A stretch of DNA of 64,000 bases from Candidatus Omnitrophota bacterium (GTDB lineage Bacteria; Omnitrophota; Omnitrophia; Omnitrophales; Aquincolibacteriaceae). The DNA lies in assembly GCA_903856085.1 (NCBI GenBank), contig CAIOAT010000037.1:1249-65248 (forward strand), read 5' to 3'. The first letter of the stretch is position 1. Each line of letters starts with the position of its first letter. Shown in pieces: positions 47,701 to 53,700 of this stretch. The position numbers were made by a program.

Positions 47701-50700
47701 CAGTACGGGACCTGTTATATGTCGGTGATGCCCACGAATCTTTACGGCCCGAACGATAACTTCGATCTTGAAACCTCCCATGTTCTGCCAGCACTTATCC
47801 GGAAAATCCACGAAGCCAAGGCCCGGAAGAGTCCCGAGGTGATGCTTTGGGGGACCGGAAAAGCCCGCCGGGAATTTCTTTATGTGGATGACCTTGCCGA
47901 GGCTTGCGTGTTCTTGATGCGAAAGTACAGCACGGCCCAACTCGGCGGGATCGTGAATATCGGCTGTGGAGAAGATCTGACGATCGTTGAGCTGGCGCAG
48001 GCAATTGCTGATGTGATCGGTTACAGGGGGAAGTTCTCGTATGATGCGACAAAACCCGATGGAACTCCGCAGAAGCTTCTGGATATCACCCGCATGACCC
48101 GCCTGGGTTGGACTCCCGGCACATCCCTCGCAGACGGCCTTCGGAAGACCTATAAGTGGTATTGCTCGTCCCTGACCTAGCCACTGAAAACCAGCCCATT
48201 TTTTTGGTTTCTGGTCATAGAAATTGGCAAAGATCTCAGGGCAGTGCTACCTGAAAATGATATCTATTGACATCTGGTGGGCGCAGAGATAGCATTCGCT
48301 ATAATTTGATCGTTCTGATGACATCAATGTAGCGACAAGGACATCATGAAAATAGAAGAAGATTTGCTTTACACTCCCAAAGAAGTGCAGGCCTACCTCA
48401 AGATATCTTCCAGCACAATGACCCGGATGATGAAAAAAGGGCTTATCCTCGCGGCTCGCGTGGGAAAGCAATACCGGATACGCGGAGCTGAGGTCCTGAT
48501 TTTTCTCTCGCCTGAACTTGCCGGCAAGCTTCGCCAAAAATATCGCAAGGCCCGTGAATGGCTACACGAAAACGATGAGGAGGCTAAAAATGAGTAGCAT
48601 GAAAGCTGTGATTTTGGCAGGAGGTCTTGGAACGCGTATCAGCGAAGAGACCGGGCTTCGTCCCAAGCCGATGATCGAGATAGGCGGTAAACCTATTTTG
48701 TGGCATATCATGAAGCTCTATTCGGCTCATCATATCAATGATTTTGTGATCTGTTGTGGCTACAAGGGATATATGATCAAGGAGTACTTTGCGAACTATT
48801 TTTTGCACATGTCCGATGTTACTTTTGACATGGCTAATAATCAGATGAAAGTCCATCACCAGAAGACAGAGCCTTGGAAAGTGACGCTTGTGGATACTGG
48901 CGAAGACACTCTTACCGGCGGTCGTTTGAAGCGCGTAGGCGAATATGTGAAAAACGACGAAGCTTTCTGTTTTACCTATGGTGACGGGATCGCGGATGTA
49001 GATATTTCCGCGGAAATTAATTTTCATAAAAAACACGGGAAACAGGCAACCGTTCTGGCCGTCCAACCTCCCGGTCGCTACGGCGCTCTGGAACTGGAAG
49101 ATCGCAGGGTTGCAGGGTTCACCGAAAAGCCCCAAGGCGATGGTGGCTTTATAAACGGCGGCTTCTTTGTTCTTTCCCCGAAGTGTCTAAAGCTCATTGC
49201 CGGCGATCAATCGAGTTGGGAAGGCGATCCTTTGACGACGCTTGCCAAGACAGGACAATTGATGGCGTTTGAACATAAAGGTTTTTGGCAACCCATGGAC
49301 ACCCTCCGCGACAAGAACCATCTGGAGGACCTCTGGACCTCTCGAAAAGCACCCTGGAAGGTATGGTGATGGAGCGTAATTTTTGGAAGGGGAAACGGGT
49401 GCTTGTGACCGGACATACCGGATTCAAGGGGGGATGGTTAACCCTCTGGTTAACAAGCATGGGCGCCGAAGTCCATGGTTATGCTTTGCCAGCGCCCACG
49501 TCTCCGGCCTTTTTCGAAGTTTGTAATCTTCAAGGTCAACTCAAGAGCAATACCCTTGCGGACATCCGCGATGGGGAAAGACTGACTCAAGCGGTTCAAT
49601 CCGCCCAACCGCAGATCGTTTTTCATCTTGCAGCCCAACCCCTGGTGCGCTATTCCTATCAGTCGCCTGTGGAAACCTATGCTGTCAACGTGATGGGAAC
49701 GGTTCATTTGCTGGAAGCTGTTCGAAAAGCGCCCGTAGTTCGTGCCGTGGTGAACGTCACTACGGACAAATGTTACGAGAATCATGAAGAAGACAGACCC
49801 TATTGTGAGAGTGAATCTTTGGGTGGTTACGATCCTTACTCGAGCAGTAAAGGTTGTTCGGAATTGGTCACTGCCGCATATCGAAGATCCTTTCTTGAAC
49901 CCGCCGGAGTTTCACTCGCCAGCGCCCGAGCTGGGAACGTGATCGGAGGCGGCGACTGGGCAGCAGACCGGCTTGTTCCGGATTTTCTCCGCGCGCTTGA
50001 TGCGAAAAAAATGCTGATCATTCGTTCCCCAGGGGCGATTCGTCCGTGGCAGCATGTTTTGGAACCGCTTTCCGGGTACCTGACTCTTGCGGAACGGCTT
50101 TTTACTTCAGGTCAAGATTTCGCGGAAGCATGGAACTTTGGGCCCGAAGAATCCGATGCTCGTTCCGTTCAATGGATCGTAGATCAATTGTGCAGCCAGA
50201 CGCCCGGTTCTTCATGGGATTGTGACACGGTGCCCCAGCCTCATGAAGCTCATTACCTGAAGCTCGATAGCTCTAAGGCTAGGGCGAAGCTTGGCTGGCA
50301 TTCGCGTTGGGATCTTCAGACAGCACTTACGCAGACGCTGGAGTGGCACAAGAAGTGGAAGGGCGGGGCAGATATGACAGCCCTGAGTCTTGCGCAAATC
50401 CGTGAATATGAGAAAGCGTGGCGGGCATGAGCAACCGCTTGGACATTCTCGAGACACCCATTCAAGGGTTGAAATTGCTCCAACGTAAAACTTTGGGCGA
50501 TGATCGTGGATACCTCGAACGCATGTTTTGCGGCGAAGAACTGCAGACTCTCATTCTGGGGAAGCATCTTGTGCAAATTAATCACACCGTGACCGTCAAT
50601 CGTGGAGTGGTGCGAGGTATGCACTTTCAGCATCCACCTAATGCGGAAACAAAGTTTGTGAGCTGTTTGTGCGGCGAGGTGTTTGACGTTGCCGTAGATC

Positions 50701-53700
50701 TGCGTCAGAATTCCCCGACTTTTTTACAATGGTATTCGGAGATCCTGACCCCGGGGAACCGGAAAACGCTTGTGATCCCCGAAGGTTTTGCGCACGGGTT
50801 TCAAACATTAACGAAAGATTGTGAAATGTTGTATTTTCACACAGCCGCCTATTGCACTGAAAGTGAAGGTGGTGTGAATGCGCTTGACCCGAAAATCAGG
50901 ATTCAATGGCCCCTCGACATTGTGGAGCGATCGGCCCGTGACATGGCTCTCCCCAACTTGAAATCTGATTTTAAAGGATTGCTTATATGAAATGCCGGCA
51001 TTGCGAATCCGATCTCAAGCTATCGCTCGTGGATCTTGGCAGCGCACCTCCTTCAAACGCTTACCTCAATGAGCAAATGCTGAAAGCTCCTGAAAAATGG
51101 TTTCCCCTGAAGGTCTTGGTGTGCGAACACTGCTGGCTGGTGCAAACGGAAGACTTTGCTCAAGCTCACGAACTCTTTGATGCGGAGTATGCTTATTTTA
51201 GCAGTTTTTCTCAAAGTTGGCTGAAGCATGCCGAACGCTATGTGGCGGACATGGTCCAAAGATTCAAGCTGAATGAGAAAAGCCGCGTCGTTGAGGTCGC
51301 GGCCAATGACGGGTATCTCTTGCAATACGTCAAGGCGCGTGGAATTCCGTGCACGGGGATTGAGCCCACGGCGAGTACTGCAAAAGCGGCGAGAACCAAG
51401 GGGATCGAAATCGTCGAAGAATTCTTTGGCGTCGAACTTGCAAAAAAACTTGTAAAGCAAGGGAAGCAGGCCGACCTGACGGCTGCCAATAACGTTCTGG
51501 CACATGTCCCCGATATCAACGATTTTGTCGCGGGTTTTTCGGTGCTGTTAAAACCCGAGGGTGTTGCCACGTTCGAATTTCCGCATCTTCTGAAGCTGAT
51601 CTCTGGAAACCAGTTCGACACTATCTACCACGAACATTTTTCGTATTTGTCCCTGACGGCTGTTACCGCGATCTTTGAGCGCAACGGCCTTTCTGTTTTC
51701 GACGTGGAGGAGCTCTCGACCCATGGGGGGAGCTTACGTGTTTTTGCCCAGCGGATCGATGCGGGAAAACGACGGGCGACGGAACGGGTCCAGGCTTTGC
51801 TTGCTGCCGAAATCGCTGCAGGGATTAAGAAAGCCGATTTTTATTCGAACTTTCAGGAAAAGGCTGCCAGGATCAAAAATGATTTTTCATTTTTTTTGCT
51901 CGAAGCTAAACGATCCGGCAAAGCTGTGGCGGCCTATGGCGCCGCAGCGAAGGGGAACACGCTCATGAATTATGCCGGTGTCCGTCCCGATATGATTTCG
52001 TTTGTCGTGGATCTTAATCCCGCAAAACAGAGGAAATATATGCCTGGCAGCAGGATACCGATCGTGCCCGAGGCTGTTTTGAGAGAAGCTCGCCCCGACT
52101 ATGTGGTGATCCTGCCCTGGAATTTAAAGAACGAAGTGATGGAGCAATTGGCGTATATTCGAGAATGGGGTGGAAAGTTTGTTACCGCGGTTCCTCAATT
52201 GGAGATCGCATGAAAATCGCTGTTATTGGCGCAAATGGTTTTATAGGTCGCCATGTCCTTGCGGAGCTGACGAAGAGATCGATCGAGTTTGTGGCCGTTG
52301 ATCTTTGTCCTCCGAAAGAGGGTAGCTTTTCGGAAATTCCGTGGGTGCAGTTGGATATCCATCGGCCTTCCGAGAAGGTTTTTGATTATATCGGCCGCCC
52401 GGACGCGTGCATCCATTTGGCATGGGGTGGATTGCCGAACTACAAATCATTGCACCACTTTGAAAAAGAACTTCCGGGGCAGTACCGGTTTTTGAGTGCT
52501 CTTGTGCGAGAGGGACTTTCTTCGCTTATCGTTTCCGGCACTTGCTTCGAGTATGGTATGAAAACGGGAGCATTGCGGGAAGATGCGGAGACTCATGCAT
52601 CAAACCCCTATGGCTTTGCCAAGAATGCGCTTTGTCGCCAGCTCCAATTTCTTCGTGAGAACACGCCGTTTGCTTTCACGTGGGCTCGTCTGTTTTATGT
52701 TTATGGGGAAGGGCAATCCAGCAATTCTCTTTGGCCCCAACTCAAACAGGCCGTTCAACGAGGAGATGTCGTTTTCCCTATGTCAGGGGGCGAACAAGTA
52801 AGGGATTATCTGCCCATCGAGACGGTTGCTGAGCGTCTTGTTTCCTTGGCGGTTGCGAAGGCTGAAACTGGAATTGTTAATATCTGCTCCGGCAAGCCCA
52901 TTAAGGTGCGCGAACTTGTCGAAGGCTGGATTGCCGAAAATGGCTGGAAAATCAAACTCGACCTGGGTCGCTATCCCTATCCCGATTACGAGCCCATGGA
53001 GTTTTGGGGAGACAGTGCAAAATACAAAGCCTGGGAGATGAAGTCTTGTCTTTAGCATTGGTCTATCTTGCGCGAGGAACGAATGGCGGGTTACCGGCCG
53101 TAAAGTCGTTTTTTGAAGCGTACGACGCCTATCCCGCGCGTTGTCCCCACGAACTAATCGTGATCGTGAAAGGTTGGTCAGGCGTGGAAGGGCAGGATGA
53201 ACTAAGACAACTAGCTCAGGCGCATGCTGCCCGCCTCGTTGAATTGCCCGATGATGGATTCGATTGGGGGGCCTATATGCGTTTAGCGCCGCAGTTGTCA
53301 CATGAGTGGCTGTGTTTCCTGAACACGCACAGCCGTCCTCGTGTCGGTGGCTGGCTTAATTTGTTGAAAAAAGCAGCCGATGCGGGTGGTTCACGATTTG
53401 GGGCAGTCGGTGCAACAGCATCGAGGCAAACCTCAGCTCCTATTTTGCCGCTGCCTTCGCCAAAGTACTCTATTTTATTGTACCCTCTTCGAATGAGTTC
53501 CTATGCATTTCGTTTTTTGACCAATATTGGGGATTTTTCTTCTTTTCCAAATCCACACCTCCGCTCCAATGCTTTTCTGGTTCGTCGGGAGCTGTTTGTC
53601 GATTTTGTTTCGACGCAAAAGATCCCGTGTTGCAAGCGCGACGCGGCCATGCTCGAGAGTGGAAGATCTGGATTCTCGGCCTTCCTGGCTCAGCGTGGTT

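Follow-up and report, generated by a model that had tools for sequence, protein, structure and literature searches.

A conserved CDP-sugar gene cassette in a Candidatus Omnitrophota bacterium, predicted to make a C-methyl-branched 6-deoxyhexose

Five overlapping genes for nucleotide sugar biosynthesis

The DNA analysed here is a 64,000 nt stretch of contig CAIOAT010000037.1 (positions 1,249 to 65,248 of the forward strand), from the GenBank assembly GCA_903856085.1 of a Candidatus Omnitrophota bacterium, and is referred to below as the window. Its plus strand carries, at positions 48590-53055, a cassette of five genes that most likely serve the synthesis of a sugar linked to cytidine diphosphate (CDP). 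The first two are rfbF (or ddhA; 48590..49369), encoding glucose-1-phosphate cytidylyltransferase, and rfbG (or ddhB; 49369..50430), encoding CDP-glucose 4,6-dehydratase. They are followed by a gene for an RmlC-type cupin epimerase (50427..50990), the substrate of which is probably a CDP-4-keto-6-deoxyhexose, and one for a nucleoside diphosphate (NDP)-hexose C-methyltransferase (C-MT; 50987..52213), an enzyme of the TylC3/TcaB9/KijD1/MtmC type that depends on S-adenosylmethionine (SAM) and has an N-terminal Cys4 zinc ribbon. The last gene (52210..53055) encodes an extended short-chain dehydrogenase/reductase (SDR), a putative NAD(P)H-dependent C4 ketoreductase.

All five open reading frames (ORFs) are intact and of full length, the start of rfbF lying either at the ATG at 48590 or, possibly, at that at 48599. 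Each gene overlaps the next: the stop codon of rfbF (49367-49369) and the ATG of rfbG (49369) have one nucleotide in common, and the rfbG/epimerase, epimerase/C-MT and C-MT/SDR pairs each overlap by the four nucleotides ATGA (50427-50430, 50987-50990 and 52210-52213 respectively). The original prediction made from this DNA, that there are five translationally coupled genes here, is upheld by these intact reading frames and overlapping junctions, and the five most likely form one translationally coupled operon segment.

Assignment of the encoded enzymes

Both RfbF and RfbG match equivalog-level models over essentially the entire profile. RfbF, which also matches PF00483, scores 474.5 bits against TIGR02623 (cut-off 300.25; profile positions 1-255 of 255), and RfbG scores 501.2 bits against TIGR02622 (cut-off 278.45; positions 1-351 of 352). 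The epimerase matches PF00908 with 187.9 bits and falls narrowly under the cut-off of the RmlC equivalog TIGR01221 (153.3 bits against 155.75). Among solved structures it is closest to Salmonella RmlC (1dzr, E value of 4.5e-38), in an alignment with which His66, Lys76, Tyr136 and Asp172 correspond to RmlC His63, Lys73, Tyr133 and Asp170, such that the full catalytic tetrad is present; among 81 cassette epimerases the first three residues are invariant and Asp172 is found in 80.

The C-MT has a complete three-domain architecture, consisting of a zinc-binding domain (PF08421, 79.7 bits), a PF13489 domain (58.8 bits) and a C-terminal PF08484 domain (215.6 bits). It gives full-length matches to the solved sugar 3-C-methyltransferases MtmC (4rv9, 2.5e-69), KijD1 (5t64, 2.6e-67) and TcaB9 (3ndi, 6.7e-61), with all of which it shares the zinc-site cysteines 3, 6, 46 and 49, as well as His173 and the motif Tyr214-x-Glu216-His217. 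The His and Tyr-x-Glu-His positions, which we take to be the catalytic residues of TcaB9 probed by mutagenesis in papers from the Holden laboratory, do not vary among 85 cassette homologues. Identity to the solved 3-C-methyltransferases is 31-33%, against 53-76% inside the cassette clade. On the basis of this architecture and these conserved motifs, an identity as an O- or N-methyltransferase was rejected.

The SDR matches PF01370 (95 bits), and both its GxxGxxG motif (G7/G10/G13) and its Y134-x3-K138 motif are invariant in 42 of 42 orthologues. All its solved relatives, namely MoeE5, GalE and GDP-4-keto-6-deoxymannose reductase (GDP, guanosine diphosphate), are distant. Overall, profile scores and coverage confirm the families originally named for the first four genes (RfbF, RfbG, RmlC-like and TylCIII-type C-MT), and the full-length matches and retained motif positions place the C-MT with sugar 3-C-methyltransferases rather than with O- or N-methyltransferases, a grouping that would have undermined the prediction.

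Absence of 3-deoxygenation genes

The CDP-3,6-dideoxyhexoses are made with a further pair of enzymes, E1 (DdhC) and E3 (DdhD), which the original prediction had reported to be missing. A Pfam scan of about 50 window ORFs taken as genes on both strands, from which overlapping shadow ORFs were excluded, found neither a member of PF01041, the family of E1, nor a ferredoxin-reductase-type protein resembling E3, and a six-frame search of the 64 kb with a DegT aminotransferase query found no DegT-like sequence. The two approaches thus agree with the earlier observation, and no ddhC/ddhD pair lies near the cassette within the window. The 3,6-dideoxyhexose pathway (ddhABCD) was therefore rejected for this locus, and, as the E1 and E3 genes are absent, C3 of the sugar would keep its oxygen.

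A block of genes resembling those for dTDP-rhamnose synthesis (dTDP, deoxythymidine diphosphate) is situated 22 kb upstream of the cassette. It encodes an RmlA-like nucleotidyltransferase (25985-26716), which scores below the model cut-offs, RmlB (26754-27743; TIGR01181, 432 bits against a cut-off of 365) and RmlD (27826-28803; TIGR01214, 254 bits against 224), and has no rmlC. When the cassette epimerase was used as the query in a six-frame search of the 64 kb, it matched only itself; hence the statement that the cassette holds the sole RmlC-like gene, alongside an rmlABD block lacking rmlC, is true of the whole window.

Distribution and conservation of the cassette

A protein search with the C-MT returned at least 8000 candidate clusters at E <= 1e-20, the best 120 of which were 75-100% identical to the query. 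With the same protein, a HMMER scan of 1.84 billion cluster representatives gave 4303 matches at E <= 1e-30; the 150 best of these all scored at least 315.9 bits, as compared to 205-237 bits for the solved enzymes with the same query. Relatives of the C-MT are present in at least 579 species-representative genomes (579 of the 600 matched stretches listed). Gene order was studied in the best 80 loci of these, with counts expressed relative to the loci having enough upstream or downstream sequence. In 60 of 74 loci, from unrelated species, the four genes are collinear in the order rfbF-rfbG-epimerase-C-MT, which rules out a chance arrangement of ORFs, and the epimerase gene lies directly upstream of the C-MT gene in 73 of 77.

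Hosts of the cassette include Gallionella, Thiobacillus, Methylophilus methylotrophus, Propionivibrio dicarboxylicus, Bradyrhizobium, Rhizobium, Methylomonas and the cyanobacterium Chamaesiphon, in addition to members of NC10, the Planctomycetota, Verrucomicrobia, Fibrobacteres, Acidobacteria, Chitinophagaceae and Campylobacterota. Between these phyla the C-MT remains 53-76% identical, whereas RpoN, encoded on the same contig (15680-17110), has identities of 84-86% falling to 52-55% within the Omnitrophota alone, the phylum to which all of its named matches belong. That the C-MT is better kept across phyla than RpoN is within one phylum suggests strong constraint, horizontal spread, or both. 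Distant matches to the epimerase and C-MT genes were sought at the DNA level in complete Escherichia coli genomes, and none was found; consequently, there is no structurally solved E. coli O-antigen that could be used as a key to the product.

The pathway was originally described as uncommon. This stands in the sense that chemical descriptions of such sugars are few, but not for the gene cassette, which is widespread on the above genome count. The cassette is already known as a gene run and is under-studied; where a Desulfolutivibrio plasmid carries it complete, the C-MT bears only the RefSeq label 'class I SAM-dependent methyltransferase'. What is described here is one more instance, in the Omnitrophota, and not a new type of system.

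Variation downstream of the C-methyltransferase

The ORFs flanking the 80 loci, in flanks of up to 7 kb, were clustered, which revealed two cassette variants. An orthologue of the window SDR (at least 40% identity) is found no more than 5 kb downstream of the C-MT in 34 of 69 loci, usually immediately next to it. In 11 loci (numbered L004, L026, L029, L031, L040, L042, L050, L063, L068, L075 and L077 in our set) its position is taken by a DegT/DnrJ/EryC1 aminotransferase (PF01041, 386 bits), which is followed by a hexapeptide acyltransferase in three of them and, further downstream in most, by a CmcI-type O-methyltransferase; some further loci have a different class of SDR, with 28-31% identity. 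Genes of this CmcI type, annotated 'rhamnosyl O-methyltransferase' (PF04989, 239.9 bits), occur within the flanks in 40 of 69 loci, their usual place being just after the SDR gene and before one for a GT2 glycosyltransferase. The window represents the SDR variant without CmcI: six-frame searches of it found no match to either the CmcI methyltransferase or the hexapeptide acyltransferase. Directly upstream of rfbF, eight loci have wzm-wzt, as does Synechocystis, with a weak match to the Wzt C-terminal domain that is below the cut-off.

Since a ketoreductase and an aminotransferase, both of which act on a 4-keto group, alternate at one position, the product of the C-MT would still be a 4-keto sugar; a retained 4-keto group is what the TylC3-type mechanism requires. 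The variants can also be compared with known branched sugars. Vinelose is 6-deoxy-3-C-methyl-2-O-methyl-L-talose, the substitution pattern of which is reproduced by the variant with both SDR and CmcI. Sugars of the kansosamine type are 4-acylamido-4,6-dideoxy-3-C-methyl-2-O-methyl-L-mannoses, a pattern reproduced by the combination of aminotransferase, acyltransferase and CmcI. For the DegT variant, the predicted products are CDP-linked sugars of the kansosamine type with a 4-amino- or 4-acylamido-4,6-dideoxy-C-methyl structure.

Proposed pathway and product

We propose, with a probability of around 0.65, that the cassette makes a CDP-activated, C-methyl-branched 6-deoxyhexose from glucose-1-phosphate, destined for a surface polysaccharide. 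Judging by their equivalog-level matches, RfbF would convert CTP (cytidine triphosphate) and glucose-1-phosphate to CDP-D-glucose, and RfbG would oxidise this at C4 and dehydrate it across C5-C6, giving CDP-4-keto-6-deoxy-D-glucose. The cupin would then epimerise C5 by means of its His/Tyr pair, and C3 too if it acts before methylation, which would place the sugar in the L series. The C-MT would deprotonate the carbon beside the 4-keto group, forming an enolate, and methylate it from SAM, most probably at C3 by homology and chemical precedent. These two steps may take place in either order; methylation precedes 5-epimerisation in the mycarose pathway, and the C-MT gene stands before the epimerase gene in some loci. 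Lastly, the SDR would reduce the 4-keto group, producing CDP-6-deoxy-3-C-methyl-L-talose or -L-mannose.

As the set comprising CDP activation, 4,6-dehydratase, epimerase, C-MT and ketoreductase has no E1 or E3, its product should be a CDP-6-deoxy-C-methylhexose, just as originally suggested; family scores, catalytic motifs and synteny all support this. Most probably the compound is a vinelose-type CDP-6-deoxy-3-C-methyl-L-hexose, equivalent to the core of vinelose minus its O-methyl group, although neither the choice between C3 and C5 nor the configuration at C4 can be read from the sequence.

Several considerations weigh against this proposal. No enzyme of the CDP cassette is known to us to have been characterised, a literature search for the biochemical characterisation of a CDP-linked cassette member having found none, and we infer the third to fifth steps. 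At only 31-33% identity to the solved 3-C-methyltransferases, the regiochemistry of the C-MT is not evident from its sequence, and its family includes the C5-methyltransferase NovU. The sole ground for assigning CDP-linked rather than dTDP-linked substrates to the epimerase, C-MT and SDR is gene linkage, and the epimerase is so near the RmlC equivalog cut-off that it could handle dTDP substrates as well. Furthermore, as the window is without the CmcI O-methyltransferase common in other loci, its final sugar may differ from vinelose.

Comparison with known systems

Azotobacter vinelandii is a source of CDP-vinelose, which was described chemically in the 1960s. The proposed product resembles this compound in CDP activation, the 6-deoxy group, the C-methyl branch, the L series and the lack of 3-deoxygenation. 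Many of the cassette loci carry the CmcI-type O-methyltransferase, which could add the 2-O-methyl group; the window differs in lacking it, and has another class I methyltransferase gene (53958-54902) 0.9 kb downstream of the cassette. A literature search found no gene assignment for CDP-vinelose; PMC3769361 refers to Hausman et al. 1998 for an rfbFGC cluster in A. vinelandii, a locus outside our set of 80.

In Synechocystis PCC 6803, slr0983 (rfbF), slr0984 (rfbG), slr0985 (rfbC) and slr1610, a 'putative C-3 methyltransferase', lie behind wzm/wzt (PMC3769361). Deletion of slr1610 causes the loss of the major exopolysaccharide band of more than 250 kDa, as do deletions of the transporter, whilst standard sugar analysis of the slr1610 mutant found no component missing (PMC3769361). 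Rhamnose persists after deletion of slr0985, with or without slr1933 (PMC12285223), which fits a role for this epimerase outside the dTDP-rhamnose pathway. This run has been likened to that in the window by its annotation, rather than by the sequence of slr1610, and its authors regard the methyltransferase as one that modifies the polymer.

The well-studied symbiont Sinorhizobium meliloti 1021 has SMb21416 (ddhA), SMb21417 (ddhB) and SMb21418, an 'NDP-hexose 3-C-methyltransferase', on pSymB (PMC4053727). The corresponding locus in our set (pSymB 1345948-1349015, L090) contains rfbF, rfbG and a gene for a C-MT that has 55% identity to the one in the window. Unlike the window, it has no epimerase gene between rfbG and the C-MT gene, and so probably specifies a branched sugar of the D series. 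A CmcI-like gene is located 8 kb away from it, on the other strand.

Amongst the sugars of actinomycete antibiotics, dTDP-L-noviose (NovV/T/W/U/S), dTDP-L-mycarose (TylC3/TylK/TylC2) and nogalose are made by the same chemistry as that proposed for the cassette: an RmlC-like epimerase, a C-MT of the TylC3 family and a 4-ketoreductase act on a 4-keto-6-deoxy nucleotide sugar. They differ from the cassette in being dTDP-linked, in belonging to secondary metabolites and in mostly having 2,6-dideoxy substrates, and the identity between the C-MTs is the 31-33% given above. The CDP-3,6-dideoxyhexose systems of Salmonella and Yersinia (ddhABCD plus abe/prt/tyv) have RfbF/DdhA and RfbG/DdhB in common with the cassette, and likewise end with a short SDR that reduces the 4-keto group, but they have E1 and E3 in place of the epimerase and C-MT. 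Finally, the O-antigen of Coxiella burnetii contains virenose, 6-deoxy-3-C-methyl-D-gulose, for which the need for a TylCIII-type C-MT has been predicted in silico (PMC3539893). This too is a C3-methyl-branched 6-deoxyhexose, in lipopolysaccharide; in contrast to the sugar proposed here it has the D-gulo configuration, and is thought to be GDP- or dTDP-linked.

Alternative interpretations

The genes could also be read as a pathway of the noviose type, in which the C-MT would methylate C5, the role of the cupin would be limited to 3-epimerisation and C4 would be reduced by the SDR, yielding a CDP-5-C-methyl (gem-dimethyl) 6-deoxyhexose. The same set of activities is found in NovW (an RmlC-like 3-epimerase), NovU (a TylC3-family C5-methyltransferase) and NovS (a 4-ketoreductase), and, because the window C-MT is equally distant from all the solved 3-C-methyltransferases, homology does not fix its regiochemistry. 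However, every solved relative of the C-MT is a 3-C-methyltransferase, and the aminotransferase and CmcI variants of the cassette match known 3-C-methyl sugars. Moreover, among CDP-linked branched 6-deoxyhexoses made without 3-deoxygenation, vinelose is the only one known to us, and its methyl group is at C3; nor do we know of any gem-dimethyl sugar in a bacterial surface glycan. With solved relatives, cassette variants and the vinelose precedent all being of the 3-C-methyl type, methylation at C5 is distinctly unlikely.

A question compatible with the proposed CDP-6-deoxy-3-C-methylhexose pathway is whether the epimerase additionally supplies the RmlC step to the upstream rmlABD block, allowing dTDP-L-rhamnose to be made. 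RmlB and RmlD exceed their equivalog cut-offs, the epimerase is the only RmlC-like sequence in the 64 kb, and it comes within a few bits of the RmlC model cut-off whilst keeping the whole catalytic tetrad. Nevertheless, the genome is incomplete and no more than 64 kb of it are visible, and in many cases rmlC is not linked to the other rml genes; the epimerase belongs firmly to the CDP cassette, as its position next to the C-MT gene in nearly all loci testifies; some loci (L005 and L012) have an additional RmlC-like gene; and Synechocystis keeps its rhamnose without slr0985, irrespective of slr1933 (PMC12285223). We therefore consider such a shared use rather unlikely. The suggestion made for slr1610, if extended to the window, would have the C-MT methylate a finished polymer as a chain terminator or an export signal for an ABC (ATP-binding cassette) transporter. 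The slr1610 mutant does phenocopy Wzm/Wzt mutants (PMC3769361), and the eight loci with wzm-wzt directly upstream of rfbF fit the suggestion. But the protein retains the three-domain architecture of a nucleotide sugar C-MT and its His and Tyr-x-Glu-His positions, its gene nearly always follows rfbF-rfbG-epimerase and precedes that for an enzyme acting on a 4-keto group, and a branched sugar acting as the terminal cap would give the same phenotype, making methylation of the polymer itself very improbable.

Downstream genes

Beyond the SDR gene, with the stop codon of which its TTG start overlaps by 10 nt, lies orf291 (53046..53921, plus strand). It has no Pfam match, and all the source-given names of its 222 homologues are 'hypothetical protein'. 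An AlphaFold2 model built with 37 homologues (pLDDT 93.5, pTM 0.90) was searched with Foldseek and appears to have a GT-A-like fold: the matches were GT-A glycosyltransferases (PcManGT, hyaluronan synthase, B3GalT5, WrtF and RmlT) and the cytidylyltransferases KdsB and IspD, with E values of 4e-7 to 2e-5 and modest TMq values of 0.33-0.49. Asp69, Asp73 and His95 are invariant, and an N-T-H-S motif stands at the place expected of a DXD motif. Six homologues on long contigs were sampled, four of which adjoin an rfbF-rfbG-epimerase/C-MT-SDR cassette; one of the others is beside a different pair consisting of a dehydratase-type SDR and an aminotransferase, and the last has no sugar genes nearby. 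Amongst the 80 loci, five have an orf291 homologue. Based on the modelled fold, orf291 may belong to an undescribed glycosyltransferase family and is, speculatively, a candidate transferase for the CDP-sugar of the cassette.

Next is a gene for a class I methyltransferase, MT23 (53958..54902, plus strand; PF13489, 68.8 bits), for which no NCBIfam or PDB match was found. Homologues of it occur after orf291 in one locus (L085) and near the cassette in two more (L005 and L015), and it is a speculative candidate for an O-methyltransferase acting on the sugar or the glycan. An ATGA overlap joins it to orf406 (54899..56119, plus strand), the product of which has two hydrophobic windows in a hydropathy analysis; this had no Pfam or PDB match, and a homologue with 31% identity is encoded near a C-MT in locus L032. 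After a gene for a DAO-family flavoprotein comes one for an ABC exporter in which the transmembrane and nucleotide-binding domains are fused (57387..59255, plus strand; PF00005 with 102 bits, a weak PF00664 match and four TM-like windows). A homologue with 29% identity is found upstream of the cassette in locus L088, with one GT2 gene in between, and the exporter is a possible route for the export of the glycan. Speculatively, orf291, MT23, orf406 and the exporter may together transfer, O-methylate and export the sugar.

More broadly, the cassette and the orf291 family might mark a widespread and biochemically uncharted system of glycosylation with CDP-branched sugars, in which orf291 would be a new GT-A-like family, without the canonical DXD motif, that uses CDP-3-C-methyl-6-deoxyhexoses, and in which the sugar would be common across more than 10 phyla, possibly as a non-reducing cap read by Wzt-type exporters. 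We regard this as a tentative and, on balance, doubtful idea. If it were true, a branched sugar would have been overlooked in environmental glycans, as routine sugar analysis lacking the standards would miss it.

Upstream region and the surrounding glycan island

Immediately upstream of the cassette is a gene encoding an 83 aa helix-turn-helix protein of the HTH_17 (excisionase/MerR) type (48346..48597, plus strand; PF12728, 48 bits), which overlaps the ATG of rfbF at 48590 by 8 nt. It is present in all the metagenome copies of the contig, which is about 71 kb long and has been recovered repeatedly in JGI and ENA assemblies, whereas none of the 80 other loci was seen to have it ahead of the cassette; it could encode a regulator or be the remnant of a mobile element. 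The 165 nt gap that separates it from fcl contains a sigma-70-like site, TTGACA-17-TAGCAT (48267..48295, plus strand). This matches at 10 of 12 positions, is one of two found in a 14 kb scan and is the sole one on the plus strand. Across the promoter and terminator scan as a whole, counts were at or below those expected from shuffled sequence, sigma-70-like sites numbering 17 against 13.2 expected, which was not regarded as enrichment. The site is thus only weakly indicative of a possible operon promoter.

The cassette is located in a glycan island of around 40 kb, which also encodes LptD, UDP-glucose dehydrogenase (UDP, uridine diphosphate), RmlABD, glycosyltransferases of families GT2, GT4 and GT9, Gmd and Fcl, the ABC exporter, a carbamoyltransferase, an ArnT/PMT-like protein and an FkbM methyltransferase. 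Inside it, positions 30620-32969 hold three genes that encode a 2-oxoacid:ferredoxin oxidoreductase (POR_N/PFOR_II, TPP_enzyme_C and POR gamma), placed between a GT2 gene and that for the carbamoyltransferase (33016-34881). A gene for a DUF4254 protein is directly upstream of one for a GT9 heptosyltransferase (37315-38879), and GSCFA-family and WcbI-like proteins are encoded on the minus strand within the island (40304-42353).

Further downstream, 59432-63717 encodes a GmhA-like SIS protein, which at 118.9 bits does not reach the TIGR00441 cut-off of 209, two SDRs, one of them resembling a dTDP-glucose dehydratase, and a split transketolase, with the N-terminal half preceding the Pyr/C-terminal half. 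This looks like a second module for an unusual sugar, recalling two-carbon branching dependent on thiamine diphosphate or the modification of a heptose. At the very start of the window (17-847) is a gene for an AbiEii-type nucleotidyltransferase toxin, of the kind found in type IV toxin-antitoxin systems.

Implications

C-methyl-branched sugars are well understood in the dTDP-dependent pathways of antibiotic synthesis and almost unstudied in surface glycans. The product class proposed here has a chemical precedent sixty years old, for which we found no assigned enzymes, and the candidate vinelose-type gene set ranks among the better conserved sugar cassettes of environmental bacteria. It exists in ketoreductase and aminotransferase variants, with a C-MT that carries only a generic NCBI label. 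It can therefore be tested which genes are responsible for vinelose-type sugars and where these sugars end up, with Synechocystis, Methylophilus methylotrophus, Propionivibrio dicarboxylicus and Azotobacter as tractable hosts.

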